Shown here: piece by piece, positions 7,104-49,467 of the stretch
Layout of the letters: each line of letters starts with the position of its first letter
How positions within the stretch are numbered: the stretch's first letter is position 1
Origin: Candidatus Nomurabacteria bacterium
GTDB taxonomy: Bacteria > Patescibacteriota > Dojkabacteria > SC72 > JAHDCA01
Assembly (NCBI GenBank): GCA_020632375.1
Contig: JACKFR010000002.1
Coordinates: 1-49,994, forward strand
DNA length: 49,994 bases
Reading direction: 5' to 3'
Notes under the pieces: generated by a model
What the model saw: only the letters and a program-made list of their open reading frames with translations
What the model was told of the DNA's origin: nothing
The model's database searches: none
Translations under genes and position numbers: made by a program

Positions 7104-7985
7104 TTGAATATATAATCCGCTGTGGTCTGATGTAAGCTTTGGTGCCAAATTCACCTTAATCGGGACGTTGGCTAAGGCATGATCGATAGGTAGGCTGACA
7201 AGTGTTCTATTCATCCACGAGTAGTAGTTCACTTTGCCAAATCGACCAAAGTACCTCCGATACAATCCCGAATAGTAAGTAGAGTTAAAATCTCCTACCA
7301 AGATTACTGGTCTGTTCCCTGCAGCTTTAGAATCATATAGGTCGGAAACTTGTTTGAAAAAGATTTTCTGCTTCGCAAATTGTATATCTGAAAGGGGAGG
7401 ATAAGGGTGCATCGTGATTATGTCAAAGGATTCAAATCTCGCATAGCAAAGAGGGTATTCCAGCTCTTTTATAGCGAGAACTTCTTTCGGTGCAGTTTGA
7501 GAAAATATGCTGCATGACTGCCCCTCTTCGCTTATAGATACAATAGGGGGGCCATATAATTGCGAAAGCTTTTGTTCAATCGCAATATTCGATTCTACGA
7601 TAGCAACGATTTGTGGTCTTGAGTTTTTAATCTCTTCGACAATTGGTTCAAGGTTTTCGTTTCTAAAATTTAGATTCATGTAGTAGATATCTGCCTGAAA
7701 ATTAGTGATTCCGGTTGTCTGAATAGGAATGATGAACACTGTAGAAATTATTATGACGTAGGCGATTGATAATATTGCGATTTTTCGGTCTCCTAAAAGA
7801 TAGACCGCAGGACTGATTAGTAAGAGAGCAAGCATGTATTGCAACTGAAAGTGAGAAAATATATCAAAGACAAAAAGGTTCCTACTCAGCAACAAAGATG
7901 TCCCTGAAAGCATAATTAATATCGTTACAAGTCCTGTAAAAAATATATAAAGAAGTTTTTTAATATTGGCAGTCGGTTTAAGCAT
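7095..7985 (-). CDS. Membrane-anchored endonuclease/exonuclease/phosphatase (EEP) family protein
   Basis: Three N-terminal TMs followed by MNL, VE, HP, GDFNS, IDH and SDH catalytic motifs. Confidence 0.85.
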   Translation of the reverse strand: MLKPTANIKKLLYIFFTGLVTILIMLSGTSLLLSRNLFVFDIFSHFQLQYMLALLLISPAVYLLGDRKIAILSIAYVIIISTVFIIPIQTTGITNFQADIYYMNLNFRNENLEPIVEEIKNSRPQIVAIVESNIAIEQKLSQLYGPPIVSISEEGQSCSIFSQTAPKEVLAIKELEYPLCYARFESFDIITMHPYPPLSDIQFAKQKIFFKQVSDLYDSKAAGNRPVILVGDFNSTYYSGLYRRYFGRFGKVNYYSWMNRTLVSLPIDHALANVPIKVNLAPKLTSDHSGLYIQLP

Positions 7986-20575: not shown

Positions 20576-21850
20576 ATGGATCAGATTGACTCAAAAGAGA
20601 CGAAGATGCCATCTAGTTCTTCTTCTGCAGAAAATAAACAACCACAGCCTGATTCTTCTAGTAAGATAACGCTTTTGAAAGAGGGTCGGATGAAGAAGCG
20701 AAAAGGATATGCGGGTCTTGGTTGTGCAATGGGGTCTATATTTACTTTGATTTTGCTTACGGTCGGTGTTATCGGTGGAATGTATGTTTATCCGTCCTTT
20801 AATAACTGGTTAGATGACAGGGGGGTTGTTCTTTTCCCATCTCAAAGTCAGACTCTTGATGGCGGGTCGACCGATACAAATAAAAGCTCTTCATCTACAG
20901 TTGTTTCGTCAGACGAAGAATCAATAATTAATGTTGTTAAAGAAAATTCCGAATCAGTTGTCAGTGTGGCTATAACGCAGCTTGAGTTTTCACCGGACTC
21001 TGGCGTTATTAACCAAAATAGCAATATTGGTTCTGGATTTATTGTAGATGGAAACGGTTTGATAATAACTAATCAGCATGTGGTTTCTGACACAGCTTCT
21101 AATTATGTTGTAATAACATCTGACAGTAAAGAGTATAAGGTAAAAGAAATTTTAAGAGATGACCTTAATGATATTGCTTTGCTTAAAATCGATGCAGAAG
21201 GTCTTAAACCGTTGACTCTTGGAGATTCTTCGGCAATTCTAGTAGGGCAGAGGGTCGTAGCTTTTGGTACTCCACTTGGAGAGTTTGCAGGGAGTGTTAC
21301 AACAGGAATTGTTAGCGGCTTAAATAGATCAGTCACAACGGGGACAGGAAGCTTCTTTGGTGTCTCAAAGACATTTGAAGACGTGATCCAGACTGATGCA
21401 GCAATAAATCCTGGGAATTCAGGTGGTCCTCTTTTAAATCTAAGCGGAGAGGTGATAGGTATTAATTTTGCGACTTCATCTGGCGCTGATAATATCTCTT
21501 TTGCTCTGCCTATAAATCGTGTCAAATCGAGGCTTGATGAGTATCGTAAATTCGGGAAATTTGTAAAACCTTATATCGGTATTGAGTACCAAATAATTAC
21601 TGAAGCAAACGCAGCTTCATTTTCAGATATTGTTCCTGGAGCATTTATTCGAAATGTCGTACCCGGAAGTCCAGCCGAGAAAGCCGGCCTCAAAAATGGG
21701 GATATTATAACAAAGGTTGGTGACGAACAAGTAGATACACTTTTCGCTTTTCTGCTTCAACAATACAAAGTAGGGGATAAGGTTGATATGACAGTCTGGA
21801 ATAATAATAAAGCCCGTACGGTTACAGTAACTCTTGGCGAAGCAGAGTAG
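20576..21850 (+). CDS. htrA: HtrA/DegP-like trypsin serine protease with PDZ domain
   Basis: GSGFIV, TNQHVV, DIALLK, QTDAAINPGNSGGPL and a PDZ domain. TM anchor. Confidence 0.94.
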   Translation: MDQIDSKETKMPSSSSSAENKQPQPDSSSKITLLKEGRMKKRKGYAGLGCAMGSIFTLILLTVGVIGGMYVYPSFNNWLDDRGVVLFPSQSQTLDGGSTDTNKSSSSTVVSSDEESIINVVKENSESVVSVAITQLEFSPDSGVINQNSNIGSGFIVDGNGLIITNQHVVSDTASNYVVITSDSKEYKVKEILRDDLNDIALLKIDAEGLKPLTLGDSSAILVGQRVVAFGTPLGEFAGSVTTGIVSGLNRSVTTGTGSFFGVSKTFEDVIQTDAAINPGNSGGPLLNLSGEVIGINFATSSGADNISFALPINRVKSRLDEYRKFGKFVKPYIGIEYQIITEANAASFSDIVPGAFIRNVVPGSPAEKAGLKNGDIITKVGDEQVDTLFAFLLQQYKVGDKVDMTVWNNNKARTVTVTLGEAE

Positions 21851-24699: not shown

Positions 24700-25341
24700 A
24701 TGAAGATCAAAAGAATCGGATTTGTAACCTTCAAGCTTTCTTTTAACGAAGTAGACTTAATAACAGACCCACTTTTCTCAATTGATGCTGGTGTAAAGAT
24801 TCCTGCTTTAGATACAGAGATGGTAATTCACAGTTCGCCCGAATATAAAGGAGTTTTAGCACCGCTTGCTGATGCGAAAGTTAGGCAGATAACACCTAAG
24901 AAGAGAGATTTCATTTTAGAAATTTCAAGCCCAGGTGACTATGAATTAGGCGGAGTGATTGTGCGAAGGCCACTTAATTCAGACTTTTTTGTAATAGATG
25001 AAGACACTGTCCGGGTTGTCTATATGGGAGAGGTGTCTCATACAATCGAGCCGAAAGAGCTTGAAAATCTTGGGGATGTAGATGTTTTGATAATGCCAGT
25101 TGGAAATGGAGCTTCATTCCCTAATTATGAAAGGTTAGAGAAGATAGTTTCTGCGATTGACCCTACTTATTTAATCCCAAGCGGGTACAAGGAGAGCGGT
25201 GTTACAATCGTCGATTTGAAAGGTGTTGATGAGTTTGTTAAAAACTTCGGCTATACAAATGTCAAAGAAGAGAACGTACTAAAGGTTAGTGACGGTACTT
25301 CTGTTGAGAATAAAGTCGTTGAGGTAGTTGTTTTAAAATAA
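24700..25341 (+). CDS. Degenerate MBL-fold (Lactamase_B_3-like) protein
   Basis: ITDPL, SPGDYELGGV, YMGE, LGDVDVLIMPVG and PTYLIPSGY follow the MBL layout, but there is no HxHxDH motif. Confidence 0.7.
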   Translation: MKIKRIGFVTFKLSFNEVDLITDPLFSIDAGVKIPALDTEMVIHSSPEYKGVLAPLADAKVRQITPKKRDFILEISSPGDYELGGVIVRRPLNSDFFVIDEDTVRVVYMGEVSHTIEPKELENLGDVDVLIMPVGNGASFPNYERLEKIVSAIDPTYLIPSGYKESGVTIVDLKGVDEFVKNFGYTNVKEENVLKVSDGTSVENKVVEVVVLK

Positions 25342-34883: not shown

Positions 34884-35372
34884 ATGAGAATCCTTGGAAT
34901 TGATCCTGGATTTGCTTTAGTGGGGTGGGGTGTTATTGAATTTCACTCATCGAGTATATCTTTAATTGATTATGGTGTTCTAAGTACAGATAAGTCTCTT
35001 GAACACTCAGATCGATTGCTTGAGATCTTTAAAGATATGCGAAGCCTTTTAGAAGATTTCAACCCGGATTGTGTTGGGATTGAGACACTTCTTTTCCATA
35101 GGAATATTACTACGGCAATGGGTGTCAGTGAAGCTCGAGGTGTTATACTTATGGCTGCCCGTCTCAGAGATAAGATAAGAATTCAAGAAGTGACTCCTTT
35201 GCAAGTTAAAAACTCGGTATCAGGCTATGGAAGAGCGACAAAAAAGCAGATGCAGGAAAATGTTCGGATTATATGCGGTCTGGATGCCGTCCCCGAGCCA
35301 GATGATGCAGCTGATGCGATTGCTGTTGCAATCTGTGCACATGATCTTATTTCATCTAGTCAACTAAGCTAA
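34884..35372 (+). CDS. ruvC: Holliday junction resolvase RuvC
   Basis: ILGIDPG, GIE, GYGRATKKQ and DDAADA. Confidence 0.96.
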   Translation: MRILGIDPGFALVGWGVIEFHSSSISLIDYGVLSTDKSLEHSDRLLEIFKDMRSLLEDFNPDCVGIETLLFHRNITTAMGVSEARGVILMAARLRDKIRIQEVTPLQVKNSVSGYGRATKKQMQENVRIICGLDAVPEPDDAADAIAVAICAHDLISSSQLS

Positions 35373-35983
35373 TGATTGTATATATAAAGGGAATGGTTAT
35401 TGCTCTCAGCGCAAGAGACAAAGCAGTGTATGTCGATATAGCTACTCAGTCAGGAGTGGGGTACAGGGTTTTTGTCTCTTCTCTCCCTATAGGAGCAAAG
35501 ATTAGTGATGAGATCGAACTATATACAAGCCTCCAGGTGAGAGAAGACAGTCAGACTCTTTTTGGCTTCGACAGCGAGGGTAAAAGAGACTTTTTTGAAT
35601 TGCTTATTTCTGTATCTGGAGTCGGCCCTAAAATTGGTATTGCACTTCTTTCTGCATTTGATACTGAAGAGTTGCAGGAACTTATCTCATCTGGAAATTA
35701 TAAAGAACTGAGTAAAGTTCCCGGGCTCGGAGAAAAAAGTGCTAAAAGAATAATCATTGAGATTCAGCCTAAACTTGAGATTGATCTGAGTCTTGAACAG
35801 AAAAGCTGGGAAGATAATAATAAGAAACAGATTACGGAACTTCGTTCTGCTTTAAAATCGCTTGGATTCAGTAAAGAGGAGATATCTGAACAGCTTGAAG
35901 TAGTCAGAACTACGATTGAAAACAATAGTGAGATGACAATCAGCTCTGAAGAGCTGCTCCGGATAATTCTGAAATCAAAGTAA
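35372..35983 (+). CDS. ruvA: Holliday junction branch migration protein RuvA
   Basis: GVGY, VRED...LFGF, LISVSGVGPK and VPGLGEKSAKRI. Confidence 0.95.
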   Translation: MIVYIKGMVIALSARDKAVYVDIATQSGVGYRVFVSSLPIGAKISDEIELYTSLQVREDSQTLFGFDSEGKRDFFELLISVSGVGPKIGIALLSAFDTEELQELISSGNYKELSKVPGLGEKSAKRIIIEIQPKLEIDLSLEQKSWEDNNKKQITELRSALKSLGFSKEEISEQLEVVRTTIENNSEMTISSEELLRIILKSK

Positions 35984-35990
35984 AAATTTT

Positions 35991-37070
35991 ATGGTTATTT
36001 CAAACAATAATAAAGTCAAAAATTCAAAATCGCCCTCCAGAAAGAGATCCTCCTCTGCGGCTAAAGTAGCTTCTAAAGACTCATCTGTCAGTGATAACTC
36101 AGTAACTGACTCTTTCCGTCCAAGAAACTTCAAAGATATTATTGGGCGGTCAAAAGAAAAGAAGACTTTGAACATAATGATTCAGGCTGCTCAACAAAGA
36201 GGCGAGGCACTTGACCATATCCTCTTTTATGGGCCTCCTGGCTTAGGCAAAACTACATTTGCAATGTCAATAGCTAATGAGATTGGCACGAATATAAGGA
36301 TTACTTCCGGCCCAGTAATCGAGAGACAGGCGGATTTAGCAGCAATTCTGACAAATCTAAAGAAAGGAGATATTCTTTTTATTGATGAGATTCATAGACT
36401 TTCAAAAACAGTCGAGGAAATGCTTTACCCAGTCATGGAAGATGGAGTAATAGATATAGTCATGGGCAAAGGTCCATCGGCGAAAAGTATTCGATTGAGT
36501 CTTGAGCCTTTTACACTTATTGGCGCGACTACACAAATAGGGAGGATAGGCTCTCCGATGAGAGATCGTTTCGGATATATTCGCAGACTTGATTATTTCT
36601 CTAATGAAGAAGCTGAAAAGATTGTAAAAAGAGCTGCAAGTATAAGTGGTATTAATATAACCTCAGATGCTGTCGCTGCAATTGCGAAAAGATCTAGAGG
36701 AACGGGTAGGGTAGTTTTAAGGCTTTTCAAACGTATCCGTGACTATCATGAATCCGAAAGTGGTAAGAAAAGCGATGGTGAAATAACACTTATTACTGCT
36801 TTAAAGGCGCTAGAGCTTATCGGGGTAGACGAGTTAGGTCTTGAAGAGATTGATAGGAAAATACTCCATGTTATTTATAATCAGTTCGATGGTGGACCAG
36901 TAGGCCTTTCGACTATTTCTGCTGCGATCTCAGAGGATTCTTCTACTATAGAAGATGTGTATGAGCCTTTCTTAATGAAGCTTGGTTTAATAAAAAGAAC
37001 GACACGAGGTAGAATAATAACAGAAAAAGGGGCGCAAGTGATTTCGGGTAATCTTTTAATCGATAATTGA
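35991..37070 (+). CDS. ruvB: Holliday junction branch migration helicase RuvB
   Basis: FRPRNF, GPPGLGKTT, FIDEIHR, GATT, RDRFG, GGPVG and RTTRGR. Confidence 0.98.
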   Translation: MVISNNNKVKNSKSPSRKRSSSAAKVASKDSSVSDNSVTDSFRPRNFKDIIGRSKEKKTLNIMIQAAQQRGEALDHILFYGPPGLGKTTFAMSIANEIGTNIRITSGPVIERQADLAAILTNLKKGDILFIDEIHRLSKTVEEMLYPVMEDGVIDIVMGKGPSAKSIRLSLEPFTLIGATTQIGRIGSPMRDRFGYIRRLDYFSNEEAEKIVKRAASISGINITSDAVAAIAKRSRGTGRVVLRLFKRIRDYHESESGKKSDGEITLITALKALELIGVDELGLEEIDRKILHVIYNQFDGGPVGLSTISAAISEDSSTIEDVYEPFLMKLGLIKRTTRGRIITEKGAQVISGNLLIDN

Positions 37071-37071
37071 T

Positions 37072-37884
37072 ATGGCAGAAGTAAGTATTTATACAGATAG
37101 TGGCAAAAGGGGGAGGCTTTTCGTGCTTGCTTCACTTCTCGCTATCTCTTTATTTTTTGTCAGAAACGCTTTTGACATAGACTTGAGATCCATTTCGCAC
37201 TTAGCGGGTCTGACTGCTAGCTACTTTGTAGCTGTGTATATCCTGTTACTGTGGGCTTTTCGTTTTCAATTTACTCGAAGTAGTTTACTCGTAGTTATTC
37301 CTCAAAGTGCTCTTTTTGTTTCGCTTCAAATGGTCTTTCTTTTACTTTTCTTTTTTGCAGACCTTCAAAGAGTTTATCAGTTTGTAATAATTTTCATACT
37401 CTCTTCGTTTGTTTTTGTGACGACATATATAAGTTTTCTTATGTCGAATATATTTAATGTCTCAACCTTTAAGCCACTTCCGCTTATTGAAGTTGCGAGG
37501 ACAACTTCATACATCTTGACTCTACTTACAACGTACTTTGTAACTTTTTCTATTGTTTACTCTTTAGAGAACTTCTTGACTATTTGTATAGTTTTATTTG
37601 GGCTTTACTTTATTATAGTTCTTTTACATTTAACTCATCTTGGTGGTGCTATACCTAAAACCACACAATATGCCTCTATAATAGCTTTCGTAATGACTCT
37701 CTCGGCTGTTTCACTTTTTTTATGCGGTGTTAGAATCGAACTACTCGGTATTGTCCCAACAGCAGTATCATTCGGTTTAATTGGCATTGAAATGGCAAGC
37801 ATAAAGAATTCGGTTAGGACAATGCTTTTATTACAGTATTCAGCAATATTCATTGCATCAATAATTTTTTGCCTATCTTTATAA
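37072..37884 (+). CDS. Hypothetical polytopic membrane protein
   Basis: 270 aa with about 8-9 hydrophobic segments. Starts 1 nt after ruvB. Confidence 0.8.
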   Translation: MAEVSIYTDSGKRGRLFVLASLLAISLFFVRNAFDIDLRSISHLAGLTASYFVAVYILLLWAFRFQFTRSSLLVVIPQSALFVSLQMVFLLLFFFADLQRVYQFVIIFILSSFVFVTTYISFLMSNIFNVSTFKPLPLIEVARTTSYILTLLTTYFVTFSIVYSLENFLTICIVLFGLYFIIVLLHLTHLGGAIPKTTQYASIIAFVMTLSAVSLFLCGVRIELLGIVPTAVSFGLIGIEMASIKNSVRTMLLLQYSAIFIASIIFCLSL

Positions 37885-38101
37885 GAGTAGGGGGGCGCTG
37901 CCCTATAGTACTATGTTTACCCTAAGTCCTATAGCAAGTAGGGCGATGTGGATAAATTTAGGAAGTATCCCGATAAAGAAATTCTCAAAGCGTAGCGATA
38001 TGCTTTAGTTTAATAATATCTTGCCGGATAGAGTACTTAACCTTGGTGCACCTGTGGGTAAACCCTTTTCATTGTTATGTATATATGTTACGCTTAATGT
38101 G

Positions 38102-38129
38102 ATCGAGTATAATCGACCTTATATGCGGC
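38102..38129. other. Candidate dif-like Xer recombination site (11-6-11)
   Basis: ATCGAGTATAA-TCGACC-TTATATGCGGC, with symmetric TATAA/TTATA flanking a 6-bp spacer. Lies 225 bp upstream of a Xer-family gene. Confidence 0.6.
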
Positions 38130-38353
38130 AGACAGTGTGGGTTTGTAACTTGTGGAAGTTTTCAGTGCATATTATAACTTTAAGCACAGCCTTAATCATA
38201 TATCCAAGTTGGCAGAAATGAAAAAAAATTTTATAAATTAACAAGTTTACTATACTTTATTGAATTATGCCTTTATGACAAGATATCTTGTGAAACTCTT
38301 CCCTACTTGTTTCACAGGGCTGATTTAGTAATAAATTAACTAATAGTGCTACT

Positions 38354-39697
38354 ATGATAATGTTTCCCAAGCTTCCTGATCAAGATGACTACCTTTTAGA
38401 CCTTCAAAATAACAACTATTCAATGAAAACTGTTTATAACTATGCAAGAGATTTGTGTATTTTTGCTTCTTTCCTCAGCTCGCATAAAGTTTCTTTTGAG
38501 AATCTCGATAAAAAAACAGTTACAATTTATAAAGGCTATCTGAAAAACGGAGATCATCTCATTGATTTGAATGATTTTAGAGAAAATATTGCTAAAAACG
38601 CTGGACTGTTAGGGAAATCAGTTGCGAGGCTCTCTAAGGGGTCTAAAACGAACGAAATATATCCAAGTACTGGTTCTATACCTGTTGAAGAGCCTCAAAA
38701 TTCGGATTTATCAGGAAATTACTTAGATGACGTTTACAAAAAAGTCTACGGGAGTCTTGGACTTATACAAACTCGTGTGCAGAAGCCTAAGTCAACAAAT
38801 GGTCTTGATGCACGGAGCATTAATCGGATGCTTTCTGCTTTGAGATCGTATTTGAAATACCGCATTGACTTTGAACTTGAAGTCCCGATTCCGCCAGATG
38901 CGATCAAATTAATAAAGACGATCAAGAAGAAATCTCAAGTAGCAGAGTTTGAAGAGCTGGTGAAACTCATTGAATGTCCGACCGAGTTTGAAAAAGATTT
39001 TAAGATTGGATTGAGGAATCGGACTATGCTGGAAATACTTTTTTCAACTGGAATGCGAATTTCTGAACTAATTGGTTTAGACCTAGAACAGATAAATTCT
39101 GAAGGAAAACTGTTTATTCTTGGCAAAGGTAAGAAACAACGGTTTGTTTATCTGACTGATAGAGCCCTTGGCTGGCTTGATAAATATCTTACAGTAAGAC
39201 TTCGTTATGCAAATGCTTCAGGTAATCATGGCAAAGAGCTTATTGATCGTGAAACGCATATGGACAAAAGTGTTTCACAGGATCTTGTCCAAAGCAGCTC
39301 AAACAGCCTTCCTGAAGTTCAAGATGCTTCCGGTGGCAATAAAAATATTGTTCTAGTAGAGAATTATCGCTCGAGTGGGTTCCTGAGTAAATTCGACTCC
39401 CCTGCCCTCTTTATTCCTTTTGGCGGTAGGAGATCTGGTAAACGGGATGCAAGAATATCTACTAATTATTTCCAAGAGAAGATCGCTGATTATAGACGTA
39501 GATTGGGGATTCAGGTTCCGACTTCGGCGCATAGTTTGAGGCATGGTTTCGCAACTTATCTTGCAGAGAATGGCGCAAGCCCTGCCGCAATACAGGTTTT
39601 GCTCGGGCATGAAAGCCTAAATACGACTACAAGGTATGTGCATGCCAGTGATAAGTTTGCGGAGGAACAGCATCGGAAAAAGCATCCGTTGGGGTAG
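38354..39697 (+). CDS. XerC/XerD-family tyrosine recombinase with two large insertions
   Basis: YSMKTVYNYARDL SAM-like N-domain, then the catalytic R (GMRISEL), K (GKGKKQR), HxxR (HSLRH), H (LLGH) and Y (TTRYVH). Confidence 0.93.
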   Translation: MIMFPKLPDQDDYLLDLQNNNYSMKTVYNYARDLCIFASFLSSHKVSFENLDKKTVTIYKGYLKNGDHLIDLNDFRENIAKNAGLLGKSVARLSKGSKTNEIYPSTGSIPVEEPQNSDLSGNYLDDVYKKVYGSLGLIQTRVQKPKSTNGLDARSINRMLSALRSYLKYRIDFELEVPIPPDAIKLIKTIKKKSQVAEFEELVKLIECPTEFEKDFKIGLRNRTMLEILFSTGMRISELIGLDLEQINSEGKLFILGKGKKQRFVYLTDRALGWLDKYLTVRLRYANASGNHGKELIDRETHMDKSVSQDLVQSSSNSLPEVQDASGGNKNIVLVENYRSSGFLSKFDSPALFIPFGGRRSGKRDARISTNYFQEKIADYRRRLGIQVPTSAHSLRHGFATYLAENGASPAAIQVLLGHESLNTTTRYVHASDKFAEEQHRKKHPLG

Positions 39698-40035: not shown

Positions 40036-41371
40036 CTGAAGCATGTGCATCAGTGTCTTGATCAGTGTAATAATTATCTCTTTGATAAAGGTGGTTGCGA
40101 CTTATCTCTTTTGCAGAGAACAAGAGGGAGAGAGCATGTTTATACTCCTTCTGACTGGATAAGTACCTGGCATAAAGCACGTATGAAGGGATGAAGAAAT
40201 GGTCGTGTCTAATTGACTTCTCTAAATACTTTTTTTGTGTTGAGAACTTCTCCTTTTTCATCTCGCCATTAACGAATGCCAACCGAAAGTAGATGTAAGG
40301 TAGGTACTTCTTGTTTTCGTTTGGATTTGATAACACTGGATGTGACAATATCTCCGAAAGAACAGACAATGCCTTGTCAGGATCTTCTTTAGCGTGTTTG
40401 AAGCTTAAAGCTAGTCCCTCATCGACTAAGTAAGGAAGGTACTCCGAAAATTCGCTTTCGAATTGTGTAACTGTTCTGGTGCTGTGTGAATTAACAAAGC
40501 TTTTATACTTGTTAAGTGTACTCTTCTTTTGGACAAACTTTTTGTAGTAAGGGCTTGAATAAAGGCTTGGAAATCCTTTTATCATTTGGTTTAATGCTAG
40601 ATCAAAATGGTGTCGGTCGTAGAGACAGTAACACGCTGATATAATGTTAAAATAGATATCATTTTTCTTCTCTTTCACTTCATTGCTTAACTCCTCGTTT
40701 TTCTTGTATCGATGCCATATCCAGATGTTGGGATCAAAATAACAGTCAAACCCGAAAAGGTATGCTGTTAAAGAAAATGTACGATCTTCTGGCCCCCATT
40801 TCTCAATATAATCTCCAAAGCCGTGAACCTTTTCAAACACTTCTCTTCTAACGATAAGGCTTGCAGCAATTACAAATGGAACTCGAAAGATCCTGCGTGT
40901 CGTTTTCTTGGGTATTATCCATCTTGGAGAGAAAAAAGTTCTGTCAGAATTTGTATAAATATTAATAGTAGATAAATCCGGTGAATCTGAGTAAAGACTT
41001 TCATCTAGACAGTGAATTCCTAGAATAGCTATTTTAGGCGAATTCTTTAAACGACTTTCAACCTTACTTAGAAGGTTTTCCGGAAATATCATGTGAGCAT
41101 CAACAAACATAAAGACCTCGCCTTTAGCTGATTTCGCCCCTAGGTTTCTCGCTTTTGCCACACCAAGGCCTACTTCATTTCGTAATAACTTTACCTTTGA
41201 GTACTCTTTATTTTGGTTAGTAATGAATTTTGTGGATCCATCTGTAGATCCGTCGTCAACTATAATAATCTCATAATTTACTTTTCTCCCTTTACAGGAA
41301 CTTATTAAGGAATCAACAGTCTTTTTTAGCCAGAAACCCTCATTAAAAGTCACAATTATAACTGATATCAA
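39956..41371 (-). CDS. GT2 glycosyltransferase (ppGalNAc-T-like motifs) with C-terminal TPR-like region
   Basis: IIIVDDGSTDGS, ARNLG, FVDAH (DxH), WGPED and WH. The helical tail YLEKSIRHDHFFIPSYVLYARYL is TPR-like. TTG start. Confidence 0.88.
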   Translation of the reverse strand: MISVIIVTFNEGFWLKKTVDSLISSCKGRKVNYEIIIVDDGSTDGSTKFITNQNKEYSKVKLLRNEVGLGVAKARNLGAKSAKGEVFMFVDAHMIFPENLLSKVESRLKNSPKIAILGIHCLDESLYSDSPDLSTINIYTNSDRTFFSPRWIIPKKTTRRIFRVPFVIAASLIVRREVFEKVHGFGDYIEKWGPEDRTFSLTAYLFGFDCYFDPNIWIWHRYKKNEELSNEVKEKKNDIYFNIISACYCLYDRHHFDLALNQMIKGFPSLYSSPYYKKFVQKKSTLNKYKSFVNSHSTRTVTQFESEFSEYLPYLVDEGLALSFKHAKEDPDKALSVLSEILSHPVLSNPNENKKYLPYIYFRLAFVNGEMKKEKFSTQKKYLEKSIRHDHFFIPSYVLYARYLSSQKEYKHALSLLFSAKEISRNHLYQRDNYYTDQDTDAHASVPFIEELIGWILHTDVGEKSSKAGDK

Positions 41372-41504
41372 GGCAATAGGTATAAGAAGTAAACTTGTGG
41401 GTAAAATTGAAAGTAAGACAAAGAACCTTAATCTAAAATGACGTATGTAATATTCTCTCTTATCTTTATTCTTAACTGTATATTCCTAGTAGTTGTTGAT
41501 CTCT

Positions 41505-44500
41505 TTAGCCCTGTATCGTTGGGAGAGGAATGTCATCATCTCGATCTAGCGGTTCTAAAGGTGAACTAACAATAACTGGAGCTTTGATTGTTTCATCGTC
41601 TGTTGTTCCAACGGCTGATTCATCGGTTGTTGGTACTTCGGGTGATGGTTCATCGGGTGGTCTTACTTCAGTTGTTGGCATCTGAAATGAAATTCTTTCT
41701 TCAGGCATGCCTCCTTCTATAAGTAGCGATTTAATTAACCTTCGTGCTTTCTTAGGTAAACCTCCTCCTTGGATTACAATGCTTCCTCTATCGAGTTTGT
41801 ATCTAGCTTTGTAAGACTCTTCACCTCTCCTTACTAATATCCTTGAGTCATCTGCGCTGATTCCGGCTTCTCCTCTTAGTTGTCCTCCTCTAGATGTCCC
41901 TTTAGGATAATAAAAATTGTCTTCTCCTAGGGCTCTTCCTTGTCCTTTTAACAAGTTTGTTCTTAGAAGTGAGGGAAGAGAATATATGGGGGGGAATTTC
42001 CCAGTTATTGGTACATCGGCTGTTGTTCCAACGGCTGTTGTTTCATCGGTTAGTGGTACTTCGGCTTGTGGTTCAACGGCTGGTGGTTCCTCGGTTGATC
42101 CATCGGCTAGTGGTTCATCGGCTAGTGGTTCATCGGCTGGTGATTTACCGGTTGGTGGTACATCGGCTGGTACCTCGGCTGGTGGTACCTCGGCTGGTAC
42201 CTCGGCTGGTGATTCCTCGGCTGGTACCTCGGCTGGTGATTCCTCGGCTGGTGATTCCTCGGCTGGTGATTCTGATACCTCTCGGCTGGTGATTCCTCGG
42301 CTGGTGGTGATTTACCGGTTGGTGGTACCTCGGCTGGTGGTACCTCGGCGGCGGCTGGTGGTACCTCGGCTGGTGGTACCTCGGCTGGTGGTACCTCGGC
42401 TGGTGGTACCTCGGCTGGTGGTACCTCGGCTGGTGGTACCTCGGCTGGTGATTCCTCGGCTGGTGATTCCTCGGCTGGTGATTCCTCGGCTGGTGATTCC
42501 TCGGCTGGTGATTCCTCGGCTGGTGATTCCTCGGCTGGTGATTCCTCGGCTGGTGATTTACCGGCTGGTGGTTCATCGGCTGGTACCTCGGCTGGTGGTA
42601 CCTCGGCTGGTGGTACCTCGGCTGGTGGTGGTACCTCGGCTGGGGTACAACGGCTGGTTGATCCATCGGCTGGTGATTTACCGGTTGGTGGTACCTCTGG
42701 CTGGCTGGTACCTCGGCTGGTACCTCGGCTGGTGGTACCTCGGCTGGTGGTGGTACCTCGGCTGGTGGTACCTCGGCTGGTGATTCCTCGGCTGGTGATT
42801 TACCGGTTGGTGGTACATCGGCTGGTACCTCGGCTGGTGGTACCTCGGCTGGTGGTTCCTCGGCTGGTGATTTACCGGTTGGTGGTACATCGGCTGGTAC
42901 CTCGGCTGGTGGTACTCGGCTGGTGGTACCTCGGCTGGTGGTTCCTCGGCTGGTGATTCCTCGGTGGTGATTACCTCGGCTGGTGGTCCTCCTCGGCTCG
43001 GCTGGTGATTCCTCGGCTGGTGATTCCTCGGCTGGTGGATTCCTCGGCTGGTGATTCCTCGGCTGGTGGTACCTCGGCTGGTGATTGGTACTCGGCTGGT
43101 GGTACATCGGCTGGTACCTCGTACCTCGGCTGGTACCTCGGGTGGTGGTTCCTCGGTACCTGGTACCTCGGCTGGTGGTACCTCGGCTGGTGGTTCAACG
43201 GCTGCTGGTGATCGGCTGGTGGTACTCGGTGGTGGTACTTCGGCTGATGGTACCTCGGTGATGGGCTTGGTGATGGACAACGGTGATGGGCTCGGTTGGT
43301 GGTACTTGGTGATGGGCTCGGTGATGATTTCGGTTGAGGTGGGTGGATGGGCTCGGTGATACCTCGGATGGGCTCAGTGGATCGGCTGGGCTCGGTGATG
43401 GGCTCGGTGATGGGCTCGGTGATGGGCTCGGTGATGGAGCTCGGTGATGGCTCTCGGTGATGGTGATGGTGCTCGGTGATGGGCTCGGTGATGGGCCTGG
43501 TGATGGGCTGGTGATGGGCTCGGTGACGGGCTCGGTGATGGGCTCGGTGATGGGCTCGGTGATGGGCTCGGTGATGGGCTCGGTGATGGGCTCGGTGATG
43601 GGCTCGGTGATGGGCTCGGTGATGGGCTCGGTGATGGGCTCGGTGATGGGCTCGGTGCTGATGGGCTCAGTGATGATGGGCTCGGTGATGGGCTCAGTGG
43701 TGATGGGCTCGGTGACGGGCTCGGTGATGGGCTTGGTGATGGGCTCGGTGATGGGCTCGGTGATGGGCTCAGTGATGGGGCTCGGTGATGGGCCTGGTGA
43801 TGGGCTCGGTGATGGGCTCGGTGATGGGCTCGGTGAGCTCGGTGATGGGCTCGGTGATGGGGGTGATGGCGGCTCGGTGATGGGCTCGGTGATGGGCTGA
43901 TGGGTGATGGGTGTGATGGGCTCGGTGATGGGCTCGGTGATGGGCTCGGTGATGGGCTCGGTGATGGGCTCGGTGATGTCGGTGGTGTCGGTGGTGTCGG
44001 TGGTGTCGGTGGTGTCGGTGGTGTCGGTGGTGTCGGTGGTGTCGGTGGTGTCGGTGGTGTCGGTGGTGTCGGTGGTGTCGGTGGTGTCGGTGGTGTCGGT
44101 GGTGTCGGTGGTGTCGGTGGTGTCGGTGGTGTCGGTGGTGTCGGTGGTGTCGGCGCTGCTGGCGGATTACCTCCTCCTACAGTTCCCATCCCGCCCGGGA
44201 CTGCATTCTGACTAATATCATTTGCAACCAAAGCGCCCATTAATAAGCCTCCAGCCGCTGGACCAACAAGTGCTCCTGCAGTACTTAGGATGTTGTCAGA
44301 AGCGGGGTTCCCAATGTCTGAAGGCCCCGGTAAGCCCCATGCTGAAGCTGCACCGCCAATTACTTGGTTCCCTAGATCGCCTAGATTGATCATAGGGATC
44401 TCATGAGTGTCATATGTGCCCATCTGATGTGCAAGGTCAAACTGCCCACCAGCAGTTCCGGAGGTTCCGTTTACAACTGCTCCCCATTTAGCAAGTGAGT

Positions 44501-47500
44501 TCGGAGCGAGCACGTTTAAGTTAATTTCCTCTCCAATATGTACTGTGTGATAATTATCTGGGCGAGGTGCGTTTTGTTGCATTTCTGCCCAAGCTTCATT
44601 TGCGAATCTTCCCGAGTCTCCATCTGATAATCCAGATTCACGTCCTATTCTTGCAAGATTTCCCCAAATAGTACTATTTTCTGCAACGCCTTCTTCGGCC
44701 ATATCTGCACTCCAGTCCTGGGTTATTTTGAAGACACCCGGCAGAGAACCTCCACCGCCAACTGAAGCTCCTGAATTTAGTAGAGTTTGACCAGTTGTAA
44801 GATCTTGAACCAGAACATTATGACCGTTCTGGCCGAAACTATTTATTACATGATACTGTCCATCAGGCTGGCGTTCGATTCTTATTGCTTCAGTAAAGCT
44901 TGACTGGACTCCTTGTGGTACTGCTCCTCCGCCTGCTGCTGCTACATGTATTGCGGTTGCTTGATCTAAATCTTGTATTGTTCCGACATGCACATGTCCA
45001 GATGTATCTACTTCATAGAACATATGGATATCTTTTCCGTCTACTGCACTTCCTGCTTGTAGATTTTGAGCCGCAGCGTGATTTATTATTGCTCCTGTCA
45101 GATGTAATCCATTAGCTCCTGGAGTTCCAAGCTGTACTACATCGATATCTGAAACATGTTTTCCGAGTTCAAATGCAGCTACTGTATGCATTACTTCGGG
45201 GTTGGCTCCTGCTCCTTGAGCGAGAACAATATGACCGGTGTCGACATGTAAGTACTGATCTACATCAAAACCAGGAGGTGTTGTGTGCGAAGAAAGAGCC
45301 TGAAGTGCGTGCTGGTCTACTGGAACCCATACGTCTGTTTGTCCATCGTGCATGCCTGCTGCATGTGGTCCGCTTAGGTCTAAGCCAACTGCGTAACCAG
45401 CGTGACTATTTCCTGCTGCATCAGTATATGAGTACTCCCTTACGTCAGTAACATCTGCATCTACACCATGTTCAGCTTTCCATTCGGCGTCAACCTTTTT
45501 GTTCATTTCTTCAAGGCTGGCTTTGCTTCGATACTTTTCTATCGCATGGACGTTTTTCCCTGCTTCTGTATAAGCTGCTAGAGCTCTCAATGCAGCAGTC
45601 CCAACCGTAGCGGTTATAATTTTCCCTGCATTGTATGCCGCATGAGCACCGGTTGCAGTGAGAGCTGCGTCTCCCTTTATAACTTTTGCTTCAAGAAGGC
45701 CTCTTTGGAGTTCAAATTTTTCTTCTTTGAGCTGTGCTTTTACGATTTCTCCAAATTGATTAAGGAGGACTCTGTTTCCTCTGTTTCTAGCTGCTTCTCG
45801 TGCTGCAAGGACCTGAGAAACTCTTTGATCTCTTGTCGCTCCTACAGGAACAGTAATTGAAAATAGGCTCTCTATTCGTGCAAGGTCAGCATCAGGAATT
45901 TTTGTTGTGTCTTTAAGTAGCGTTTCAACTTTCCCATCGTAGGCTACGACCTTATCTTTGAGGAGTTTGTATGCATCTAGGTCACCTTCGTATTCGATTT
46001 TTGCCTTTACCATTTCTAACACAACATCTCCGGCTATTCTAAGTCCCCAACTTACACCTGGTAGTGGAACCGCCATTGAAATACCAGATAATGCGCCACC
46101 GAAGATTGCAGCACCCCAAGAGTACTTGTTAAATTTAGATAAGCTCGCATTACTACCTAAAGCAGCTTTAGCTTTTCTTACTCCTTGTACAGCTTTTACA
46201 GCACCATATATACTCATTAGGCCTCCCGCTGCTAACAATAAAGGTGCTCCTCCGACTGCACTAATACCGGCCGCTCCTGCAGTGTAAAGCAAACTGACTC
46301 CAAGTTGTTTTAGATACTTTGACTTGTTCTTCCAGATCTTCTTTAAGGCTCCTTTAAGCCAGCCTTTTTCAGTCGGATCTTCCAGTGCTTCAACTGTTGC
46401 AGCGATTTCTTCTGAACTTTGTATCCCTGGGATCTCACCTGCTGGAACCATTTCCCCTGGGTTGGCGGGGTTTGGTACCTCGACTCTTTCTACTGCATCG
46501 AGGAAGTCTGCGACAGTAGTAGATAGTGCCTCTTTTCTTGTCTCTTCAGGAGATTTTCCAGACCTGACATATTCAAGCAGATATTTGAGGTTTGTCGCAT
46601 ACGGTGTTGAAAGAGCTTCCAAATCACCGTTGATCCGGCCATCGCTTAGGCCTTTGATTGTTTTACCTGCGACTAGATTGGGGTTTGCAACTGTGCCGGC
46701 GGCTTCTTTTAGTCTTTGTTCAAGCTGTGCCTTATCTGCTGGAGTTAAGGTTGTTAGATCATAACCAAGCTTCTGAAGAACAGGGTCAAAGTTTGCTCCT
46801 GTTTTAGCTCGATTAAGAATATCTGCAGCCATTTTGAAGTGGGCGACTGTACGCAGCCCGCTCCACATGCGATTAAGGGCTTCATTTTCTTTACTGCCGT
46901 ATGCTTTAACTTTGAGTTCGCCTGTTGGAATTGTTTCGCCTGCTGCCTGGTCTGCGAGTCGAAGATCATTAAGCATCGATCCTGCAGCGTTTGGTACTGT
47001 GAGTGTAAGGCTTGAAGGGTCTTTATCAAAGAAGAGATCCATAAGGCTCTCAGCAAGGGCTTCAGGTCTGGCTGCTCCACCAGTTGCGATCGGCTCCATG
47101 ATAAAGTGTGAAAAGAGCCCATACATTGTTTGCTTATCTATATCTTTACCTCTTGGTGCTTTCTCTTTCGCAATATCTTTTATCCCTTTTGCCAATATTG
47201 CCGTCTGGACAAGAGTTGCGACTTTGTCAGCAAGGGCTTTGTCTACAGCTGCTACTGAGAGTAGCCTGTCATATACAACTGGGTTCTGAGAGTCACTTTC
47301 TACCAGTGCTCTGAGTGCAGTTATATCTAAGGCTGCAAGCTCCGGATCTGGAGGAGGACCGGCTTTTTTCGCTTCAATTTCGGTCACTGCTTTTTCAAGG
47401 GCTATTTTTTGTATAGTCTCAACAGCGTATTCAGGGTTTGCCGTGTTGTCGAATTCTTGGGCAAGCTTCTTGACTTCAGTATCTGAAGTCGGAAGCTCTT

Positions 47501-48866
47501 TAATTGCTCGACTTGCCTTTAGGCCTGCCATAGTTCTTTCCCGGTGACTTTTAGTACTGTCACCCATGCCACGAGCTCCTTTAAGCCCAATTGCAATTAT
47601 TTTTCGACCATTCTTACCATTATTTGCTCGAATCGCTTTATCCATTTGTTCGAGGAGTTTTTTGGCTTCTGCTCCGGTTGCTCCTCCTGGGGCTGCTGTT
47701 ATGCCTTTGTAGAGGACTTCACCAGAATTGATCCAGTCGTTAATCTGACCAACGCCGTTGTTATCGGTTACATTGAGGCTATAGCCACCTGCGGGGTTTG
47801 TGATCGGCTGGGTTGATGCTGCTTTCGTGTTAATTGTTGTCGGCGTCGGTACTGATGTATCTGTATGATTGAGTGTAAGCGTCGTTACTTTGCCATTCAT
47901 TCTATTAACAAGTACCTTTCGATTAGCCTTTACATTTGCTCTGCTGTTTGCTGAGTATGCCCCTACAACGGTGTCTCTCAAATATGGTGCAAGTGCTGGA
48001 TCGGCAGCTGCCAAGTCAATGGCTTTTTTCTGAATAAGAAGCTGAACGGTTTTCTTAAATGAGTCGTCTCTAAAAAAATCTTTAGGGTTCGCAGAATTGA
48101 GAAGCCCTAGAAACTGTTCTACTGCATGAGGGTCAGTAAGTCTTATAAAGATTGCTGCTGCAATTATTTCTTGGGCATGAGTATCGTTTACTGTCGGCGG
48201 TGTGCCAGTAGACTCAGGAGATAATCCAGCAACTGCTGCTTTAATATCATTAAATACAGCTGCATTTCTTAATGCGACTAGTGTACTAGGATCTACTCCA
48301 AACTTACTTTGGATAAGCTCTTCTATTTTTGAAGAAAAGTTGTTTCCCGCTGAATCTTTGCCATAAATCCCATCGACCACCTCTTTAGCAGTGAATTCGA
48401 TTGCTCCCATTGATCTGAGATCTTCAGCAGGATCAATCTCTAGAAGCGGATCAGGGTTTTCCATAATTTTCTCGATCTCCATATCTGCTGCGGGATGGTT
48501 GGAATCCTTGTCATACAGCTGTCCTTGACGAGCCTTCTTCTCACCTGTATTCTCCCACTTTACCGCTTCCATCATATCTGTAGAAGCAATCTTTAGAGCT
48601 TCTTGTACCGCTCCTGCTAGTTCAGCTTTCTTAGTTTTACCCTTTTCATAAACTAAAGCTGGATCAGTGACTTGAGGCCTCTGAGCTTCTGGGACGTCTT
48701 TAAGATGGCTCGGAACACCAGTATCAGCAAGATAGTGTGGGACAATTGCTGCCGCCTGTAAAAGGTCTGCTGCTTCATGGCTTTTTGCTTGTGCTTCGTT
48801 GGGAAGTTTTTTGGTGTCTATAGTTGCAGGACCGCTAGCTCTGCGAAATGGATTGGGCATTGGCAT
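41505..48866 (-). CDS. Giant (~2,450 aa) repeat-rich surface-type protein, reading frame interrupted by indels within its repeats
   Basis: The ORF track gives 43374-48866 (1830 aa). The frame of the 41505-41954 ORF stays open upstream to 42311 and reads AEESPA/AEVPPA repeats. The intervening ORFs flip between frames of the same repeat units, and there is no intergenic gap. Confidence 0.75.
42078..43256 (-). repeat. Degenerate 15-bp coding repeats (EVPPA/EESPA) with a 72-bp higher-order unit
   Basis: Units GGCTGGTGGTACCTC and GGCTGGTGATTCCTC on the + strand. The GGTGATTTACCGGTTGGTGGTACATCGGC block recurs near 42139, 42794 and 42866. Boundaries are approximate. Confidence 0.92.
43257..43980 (-). 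repeat. 12-bp coding tandem repeat (SPSP)
   Basis: (GGTGATGGGCTC)n on the + strand. On the - strand it reads SPSP, EPIT or AHHR depending on frame. Boundaries are approximate. Confidence 0.93.
43981..44151 (-). repeat. Perfect 9-bp tandem repeat x19 encoding (PTP)n
   Basis: (GGTGGTGTC)19 = 171 bp with no variant copies. Confidence 0.97.
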
Positions 48867-49467
48867 TTTTCTTTGCTTGATAAATTAAGGCAATTGCTTC
48901 TTCTTCGTTGCCTTCATCGAACAGAGCAACGACCTTTTCGAAGTCTTCTTTTGGCAGCTGAGATAGGTGCATTACAATTTCAGATTCTTTTTCAATTGCT
49001 TGGGTAAGTTCTTTTGTTGCGGTTTCTAATTCGGCATCAAATACATCGTCAAAGGTTTTTTGCATGACAGCTTCACAGAAATGATTAAGCAAAACGAATT
49101 GCTGGAGGACATTGGGTTTGTGGAGTAAAAGATTGTTCCACTTAGCTTTTACTTCAGGTGGCATCGCTTTGCTGATTTTGTCTTCAGATCTTAACAGTGC
49201 GACATCTGTAACCTTACCCACTATATCTAAGACTGTTTCTTCGCTGACTCCCCTACTTTTGAGAAACTCAATGAGTTTCGTGAGTCGATCTTGGCCTTTG
49301 GTGAGTTTGAAAAAGTCATCGTCCAGGCCTCGAAGCATTTCTGCTATTTCTTTAGAATCAGCATCGCCTTGAGTTTCAAGGTCACTTGCAATTTGCATCA
49401 CCTGGTCTTTAGTAAGATTGAAGATCTGATTGAGATCTTCAGGGAATTTGAAGTCTGAGTTGGCCAT
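48835..49467 (-). CDS. Hypothetical acidic all-helical protein (possibly DUF5663-like)
   Basis: 210 aa, no TM. Overlaps the giant gene start by 32 nt. The DUF5663 resemblance is only a recalled pattern. Confidence 0.78.
   Translation of the reverse strand: MANSDFKFPEDLNQIFNLTKDQVMQIASDLETQGDADSKEIAEMLRGLDDDFFKLTKGQDRLTKLIEFLKSRGVSEETVLDIVGKVTDVALLRSEDKISKAMPPEVKAKWNNLLLHKPNVLQQFVLLNHFCEAVMQKTFDDVFDAELETATKELTQAIEKESEIVMHLSQLPKEDFEKVVALFDEGNEEEAIALIYQAKKNANAQSISQS

Follow-up and report, generated by a model that had tools for sequence, protein, structure and literature searches.

In model bacteria, dif and the point at which the FtsK guide words converge coincide with the replication terminus, and this coincidence has been used to argue that termination takes place at dif. 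A dif site generally comprises 28-31 bp, with a pair of inverted arms of some 11 bp flanking a centre of 6-8 bp. Among the described systems, the closest to the locus of the present study are XerCD/dif with FtsK and KOPS, known in E. coli and, with CodV/RipX, SpoIIIE/SftA and SRS, in B. subtilis; the XerA/dif system of archaea; and the XerS/difSL and XerH/difH systems of streptococci and lactococci and of epsilon-proteobacteria, respectively. In L. lactis, where the system requires FtsK, KOPS is a heptamer (PMC3384302); archaeal dif is often located at 122-144 degrees from oriC, not at 180 degrees (review PMC5357621). For the candidate phyla, a preprint describes the 'Cand' simple tyrosine recombinases, which are related to Xer, occur in candidate phyla only and are presumed to be dimer resolvers (Smyshlyaev et al., bioRxiv 10.1101/542381).

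Chromosome segregation in CPR/Patescibacteria, which make up a large share of bacterial diversity, is essentially unstudied, and the literature on these bacteria that we searched describes neither a dif site nor a KOPS word. In the present study, a candidate dif site, which had been predicted from a single stretch of DNA of a bacterium of the Dojkabacteria (WS6), was compared with the corresponding loci of related genomes, and its position was related to the polar words and to the compositional skew of the chromosome.

Materials and Methods

The window is the whole stretch of 49,994 nucleotides that was analysed, and corresponds to bases 1-49994 of the 184-kb contig C7 in a draft genome of 735 kb and 14 contigs. 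The relatives used for comparison carry the source annotations Candidatus Dojkabacteria or candidate division WS6. For the skews and the words, two rebuilt complete genomes were used, G029 (748,838 bp) and G027 (733,750 bp). The replication component of the skew (R) was taken as the mean of the skew of plus-strand genes and that of minus-strand genes, by which the coding-strand component is split off. For the polar words, k-mers were ranked by strand bias in G029 and G027, using only the regions that flank the origin. The window's contig was scanned for polarity with no preset word, and counts were made in 2-kb bins in order to suppress the tandem repeats of a giant repeat-protein gene. For G152, which is a closed genome from another order of the class, the evidence consists of word positions and dnaA only.

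Results

The dif-type site lies at 38102-38129, with no strand assigned, and its 28 bp, ATCGAGTATAATCGACCTTATATGCGGC, are arranged as 11-6-11 with a left arm ATCGAGTATAA (38102-38112), a centre TCGACC (38113-38118) and a right arm TTATATGCGGC (38119-38129). The layout and the ATAA-N6-TTAT core are exactly those of the original prediction, and the uniqueness proposed there as a check was confirmed, since the 28-mer occurs as one copy in the whole 735-kb draft genome. Within the 50-kb window, TATAA-N6-TTATA was observed once against 0.12 expected, and 12 of 100 shuffled sequences had at least one match. The motif alone is only weakly significant and is little proof; the significance of the site rests on the comparison with relatives. 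No second att copy or inverted partner of the site was found in the genome, each genome having one copy, and a search for XDS-like half-site arrays gave only scattered matches to either arm, at chance level. A perfect TATAAT is contained in the site, which is on the same strand as xer and precedes it by 225 bp; an additional role as promoter or operator is possible.

Several other candidates were tried and rejected. The canonical bacterial dif, searched for with a degenerate consensus, was matched at best at 22-24 of 28 positions in the window's genome, G029 and G027, and none of these matches was common between genomes; the three genomes thus have no canonical dif, in keeping with the 28-mer as the dif site. 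A dif-like match near the skew maximum of G029 (G029:367593) overlaps a gene start and its promoter, and is absent from G027 and from the window's genome. Reading the arms as an RNA hairpin gave no more covariation than shuffled data, of which 95 in 500 were as high as the real alignment, and the variation is nearly all on one arm.

The neighbourhood upstream of the site is conserved and contains the Holliday-junction genes ruvC (34884-35372), ruvA (35372-35983) and ruvB (35991-37070), all on the + strand and above the curated cut-offs of NCBIfam and Pfam; yebC is also located upstream. Between ruvB and the site lies the gene of a 270-aa protein (37072-37884, +), a place that is conserved among the relatives. 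This protein had no family match in Pfam or NCBIfam, and its counterpart in G028, a 272-aa ORF at the same place, is hydrophobic and multi-pass when judged by eye. The long Xer-type tyrosine recombinase gene (38354-39697, +) starts 225 bp past the site, and the adjacency that had been likened to the xerS/difSL arrangement was thus confirmed. Up to xer, most ORFs of 100 aa or more are on the + strand, and from 39956 to the end of the window all of them are on the - strand, hence the gene-orientation switch reported at the Xer gene is real. From 41000 to 45000 the window has a GC content of 0.49-0.62, against about 0.38 elsewhere, and an AT skew down to -0.52; the ORFs there are 42145-43107 and 43374-48866, both on the minus strand, and the rise in GC lies over a giant repeat-rich ORF of 1830 aa. 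The Rfam search of the window gave a tRNA only.

The long enzyme has 447 aa, with a Pfam Phage_integrase domain (E = 7.5e-34) and an N-terminal SAM-like domain. Its top NCBIfam models are XerC (171 bits) and XerD (167 bits), both below the curated cut-offs because two inserts interrupt the protein. These inserts, at about aa 86-148 and 288-327, vary in length and have low model confidence, and they are probably disordered; the AlphaFold model as a whole has a mean pLDDT of 64. The closest solved structure is E. coli XerD (1a0p), and in 26 orthologs the catalytic residues R235, K258, H393, R396, H419 and Y428 show little or no variation. Orthologs of the enzyme are present in 40 of 41 related Dojkabacteria/WS6 genomes, with 53-68% identity.

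The original prediction had spoken of a single Xer recombinase, which is true within the window only. A second Xer-like recombinase of 297 aa is encoded elsewhere in the same genome (contig C9:68648-69550, -); it is single-copy in 39 of 41 relatives and, with 62-75% identity, is better conserved than the long enzyme, to which it is only about 22% identical. In G029 and G027 its gene is near the origin, 27-39 kb from dnaA. When a separate site for this recombinase was sought, the sole conserved non-coding element nearby looked like a tRNA; this element, judged by eye, lies about 650 bp upstream of the 297-aa gene in about 27 of 30 relatives.

The conservation of the site upstream of orthologous xer genes, another check that had been proposed, was borne out. 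TATAA-N6-TTATA was found once in the xer loci of 26 of 30 relatives, each time about 230-450 bp upstream of the gene, and in an alignment of 27 genomes the conservation is confined to about 28 bp, with flanks that do not align. The consensus of this alignment is ACCGAGTATAATCACCCTTATATGCGGT, that is, ACCGAGTATAA-TCACCC-TTATATGCGGT, from which the window's site differs at three positions. Positions 4-12, 17-22, 25 and 27 of the 28-mer are invariant and the central 4 bases are variable; the left arm is essentially fixed, and the right arm varies as TTATA[T/C][G/T]C[G/T/A]GT. The left consensus arm ACCGAGTATAA and the reverse complement of the right arm, ACCGCATATAA, are identical at 9 of 11 positions, and in some genomes both arms form a perfect 11-bp palindrome. 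In a genome-wide search, the exact core GAGTATAAT-N4-CTTATA was found once per genome, next to xer, in about 33 of 41 relatives, and a reversed control pattern gave almost no matches. In a phylum-wide sample of 301 Patescibacteria, all 17 members of the class have the exact core and the 284 others lack it.

The site is linked to xer in 25 of 26 genera. In genus g18 (G028 and G020) the site, TACCGAGTATAATCACGGTTATATGCGAC, has one mismatch and lies about 179 kb from xer or on a different contig. It is still found behind ruvB and the membrane-protein gene, its flanking polar words are kept, and the downstream genes run the opposite way. As the site is kept behind ruvB while xer is elsewhere, it follows that the gene moved and the site stayed.

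Some departures from this pattern were also observed. In G001, of the same family, the site (C1:204573-204591) has a C at an otherwise invariant T (GAGCATAAT), and the long Xer (P0060) deviates from all others across the HxxR catalytic motif (AHSSEAWLCNLLWLRMVLLQRRFRCC) in a manner that resembles a compensated double frameshift; these deviations may come from an assembly error or from decay of the system in that lineage. In G002, xer is closely followed by a second site in direct orientation, GAGTATAAGTAAACTTATA, which has one mismatch, so that the two cores, C17:5633-5651 and 7731-7749, bracket the gene; this may be due to chance, to an IMEX-like event (a mobile element that exploits Xer) or to a duplication. 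In addition, GAGTATAATATC[C/T]CTTACA is common to four genomes of three other families (G172:C45:2550, G224:C1:572584, G257:C1:7299 and G065:C3:6016), and two other Patescibacteria, G266 and G308, have [C/G]AG[T/C]ATAATGCACCTTATA in common. Motifs of these two types may be related dif variants of other CPR classes.

The ranking by strand bias in G029 and G027 placed one family of 6- and 7-mers on top, namely GTAGGG, AGTAGG, AGTAGGG and GAGTAGG, and on the window's contig the top words were AGTAGG, GTAGGG, AGGGGAG, GAGTAGG and AGTAGGG. In the window, the polar word GAGTAGGG is present at 37885-37892 (+), 2 nt past the stop codon of the upstream gene, and its AGTAGGG (37886-37892) points at the site. 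A further AGTAGGG at 37937-37943 (+) points at the site from about 160 bp to the left, and another at 38301-38307 (-), which reads CCCTACT on the + strand, points back at it from 171 bp to the right, before the start of xer. The remaining copies in the window, which span 21241-49257, begin at 21241, 21769, 32535 and 34771 (+) and at 49251 (-), with one exception to the polarity at 25161 (-). On the window's contig, the ratio of + to - copies is 6:1 before the site and 0:11 after it (Fisher exact p = 3.8e-4), and the eleven copies past the site run from 38301 to 180838.

The same convergence was found in the complete genomes. From the origin to the skew maximum (at 370 kb in G029), from there to the site, and from the site back to the origin, the ratios of + to - copies of AGTAGGG are 35:3, 23:2 and 0:53 in G029, and 30:5, 39:4 and 0:34 in G027. 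The site lies between the nearest copies of opposite orientation, which are about 400 bp apart, at 551,528 (+) and 551,913 (-) around the site at 551,692-551,710 in G029, and at 617,057 (+) and 617,466 (-) around 617,232-617,250 in G027. At most loci, inward-pointing copies lie 197-212 bp to the left and 150-165 bp to the right of the site; for the window's locus, the nearest are at 156 and 171 bp, respectively. The orientation of the word flips at the site in seven relatives (G029, G027, G026, G001, G005, G037 and G028), and in G028 the flip is at the site and not at the unlinked xer. G152 has a flip at its site as well, which is less clean. On C1 of this genome, dnaA is at 137 kb; AGTAGGG keeps to the minus strand over the next 25 kb or more, the change to the plus strand comes only at about 190-300 kb, and the origin-side flip of the word does not closely coincide with dnaA.

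The polarity does not depend on the strand of the gene, the word being present in both sense and antisense contexts; in the stretch of G029 that runs from the skew maximum to the site, plus-strand genes contain 4 copies and minus-strand genes 16. The skew of the word towards the site is 0.96 in G029, 0.92 in G027 and 0.94 on the window's contig, and that of known KOPS is 0.79-0.91; GAGTAGGG also fits the B. subtilis consensus GAGNAGGG (PMC3384302 for both). Read 5'->3', the copies point to the site, as KOPS do in their permissive orientation. AGTAGGG is 2.7-fold over-represented in G029 and G027, and in the window's genome it is polar though not over-represented (61 observed against 63 expected). 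The window's genome encodes FtsK with a gamma domain (99 bits; cut-off 30.6), as do all 6 of the relatives in which it was sought. It is suggested that (G/A)AGTAGGG is a candidate guide word for FtsK of the KOPS/SRS type.

A GC-skew maximum near 38 kb had been proposed as a further check, and the cumulative curve has none there, since on the 184-kb contig it rises to about 124 kb. The GC3 R of the window's contig is significantly positive over all 184 kb, so that the skew switch is not on this contig, with +0.12 to the left and +0.10 to the right of the site, and the AT3 skew is -0.09 to the left and -0.16, -0.15 and -0.12 to the right. In G029, GC3 R is +0.13 to +0.18 over 30-360 kb, flips at 360-390 kb and is then negative through the site; in the 60 kb beside the site, R is -0.14 [-0.20, -0.07] to the left and -0.24 [-0.34, -0.09] to the right. 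The GC3 R of G027 is close to zero immediately ahead of the site and negative beyond it, AT3 is unchanged across the site, and both flip at about 400 kb. In both complete genomes the GC3 and AT3 flips fall at 360-420 kb, near the point opposite the origin and 160-230 kb from the site, and the intergenic skew agrees with AT3 and GC3. Two more genomes were sampled: in G026, R is positive for about 100 kb past the site, and in G001 it is negative to one side and close to zero to the other, with no clear sign change. In 5 of 7 relatives the raw GC skew steps sharply at the site, because a strongly one-sided gene orientation gives way there to a mixed one.

Word and skew both have their other flip at dnaA. 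The angle of the site from dnaA is 101 degrees in G029, 79 in G027, 91 in G026 and 96 in G001, and in G152, too, a long distance separates the site from the point opposite dnaA. The compositional terminus is not at the site, and the skew switch, where bacterial dif sites are normally found, lies elsewhere. An inversion is ruled out as the source of this pattern, since words and skew would have turned together. The mismatch between word and skew means that over about one quarter of the chromosome the guide words oppose the direction of replication implied by composition. As a side observation, genes in these stretches (370-552 kb in G029 and 400-617 kb in G027) slightly favour the strand with the words, at 54-55% of coding bases, an orientation that is head-on to replication as judged by the skew.

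Discussion

We believe that the 28-mer serves this Dojkabacteria bacterium as its chromosomal dif site, with a probability of about 85%, as judged from comparative sequence analysis. This reading is strongly supported by four lines of evidence, which we count as independent: the layout together with its conservation, the single copy per genome, the retention of the site in genomes where xer is no longer beside it, and a KOPS-like word that converges on it in bacteria with an FtsK gamma domain. In the light of these findings, the dif/Xer/FtsK module is regarded as genuine, and for CPR it is undescribed in the searched literature.

By the mechanism we propose, the long enzyme, possibly together with the 297-aa enzyme, would bind both nearly palindromic 11-bp arms, and strand exchange at the edges of the 6-bp centre would convert chromosome dimers to monomers. 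FtsK, as the presumed reader, would be steered to the site through its gamma DNA-reading domain by (G/A)AGTAGGG. With regard to the enzymes, one recombinase binding both arms is favoured by the nearly palindromic arms and by the linkage of the long gene to the site, and a pair like XerC/XerD is favoured by the unequally conserved arms and by the presence of two core recombinases.

Other explanations of the palindrome were weighed against the dif reading. It might be merely a promoter or an autoregulatory operator of xer and no recombination substrate, as would fit the TATAAT inside it, its place 225 bp upstream on the same strand and its linkage to xer in nearly all genera. We consider this very improbable, since G028 and G020 keep the site and its flanking words though xer is elsewhere and the downstream genes are reversed, no -35/-10 promoter is predicted at the site on the + strand, and there is no rationale for a genome-wide polar word to converge on an operator. 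Moreover, the 11-6-11 arrangement with a variable centre is the layout of a recombination core. The site could also be the attachment site of an integrated element or the end of an invertible segment, with the long enzyme as its integrase or invertase. A tyrosine recombinase beside its site is indeed typical of integrative elements, and the genes after xer are compositionally odd, with GC up to 0.62. This is the least probable of the explanations weighed here, because each genome has a single site with no second att or inverted partner, the gene and the site are core, single-copy and syntenic with ruvCAB across the order (the site is core across the class), and the best scores are to the XerC/XerD models and the XerD structure and not to phage integrases.

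A further alternative accepts dif and differs on its position. The site may be both dif and the true replication terminus, with unequal replication arms of about 100 and 260 degrees and a skew that misleads over the next 160-230 kb. The polar word and the local convergent switch of gene orientation are both centred on the site, which would agree with this explanation, as would the step of the raw GC skew in most relatives and the near-zero corrected GC3 skew just before the site in G027. Nevertheless, in G029 and on the window's contig the corrected GC3 skew is significant and has the same sign on both sides of the site, AT3, which is an independent measure, and the intergenic skew agree with it, the skews of G029 and G027 flip only at 360-420 kb, and that of G026 is still positive about 100 kb past the site. 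A terminus at the site is thus considered unlikely. The original prediction of a dimer-resolution locus and terminus is upheld in its first part, by a dif-type site with a converging word; its second part is not, as the corrected skews run through the site unchanged.

Returning to the reading of the site as dif, we hold at slightly better than even odds that throughout the class Dojkabacteria replication ends independently of where dimers are resolved, with neither the site nor the chromosome-wide polarity tied to termination, and that the forks meet near 180 degrees. We know of no bacterium with FtsK and KOPS for which a dif away from the terminus has been described. If the uncoupling is true, this class would stand as a natural exception to the view that in bacteria dif has to sit at the end of replication, and selection would align the guide words on dif and not on the terminus. 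A lineage with dif apart from the terminus asks which constraint matters, the end of replication or the polarity read by FtsK. For the whole class, the locus offers a site, ACCGAGTATAA-TCNNCC-TTATAYKCGGT, two candidate recombinases and a candidate guide word, GAGTAGGG. In practical terms, the polar word and the site may be used for the orientation and ordering of contigs and for checking CPR assemblies.

When the locus is compared with known systems, it resembles XerS/difSL and XerH/difH in that the recombinase gene adjoins the site and the enzyme is longer than XerC/XerD. In contrast to the present locus, these are single-recombinase systems at the terminus; difSL is 31 bp of another sequence, and the long enzyme scores 86 bits with the NCBIfam XerS model against a cut-off of 267. 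The 'Cand' recombinases are a comparison at the level of proteins, since the accessible part of that work classifies proteins only and mentions no site, polar word or chromosomal position (bioRxiv 10.1101/542381).

The likeness to the XerA dif sites of Thermococcales, which had been noted in the original prediction, was supported by the P. abyssi site ATTGGATATAATCGGCCTTATATCTAAA, used in binding and cleavage assays (Cortez et al. 2010, PMC2958812), with which the window's site is identical at 19 of 28 positions. At the centre the identity is 16 of 17, TATAATCG[A/G]CCTTATAT, most of the spacer included. Nearly palindromic arms are shared with the archaeal system, as is a linked xerA/dif module in some archaea. 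In its appearance, the site is closer to archaeal XerA dif than to the bacterial consensus, which bears on the evolution of the Xer systems. Unlike archaeal XerA, which is reported to be FtsK-independent, the present system belongs to a bacterium with FtsK gamma, a KOPS-like word and two recombinases, not one. Neither recombinase reaches the curated score of the XerA family (NF040815; long enzyme 131.9 bits, short enzyme 154.2, cut-off 220), and both score higher with the bacterial XerC/XerD models, also below the cut-offs.

Compared with XerCD/dif and FtsK-KOPS, the locus differs in its nearly palindromic arms (9/11), in the one xer that adjoins the site and has two long inserts, in the low identity of the two recombinases (about 22%) and in a site that lies off the compositional skew switch. 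E. coli dif matches the window's site at only about 13 of 28 positions. Nonetheless, the likeness to this bacterial system extends over the 28-bp 11-6-11 layout with its ATAA-N6-TTAT core, the two Xer paralogs, the FtsK gamma domain and a G-rich polar word of 7-8 letters that converges on the site.
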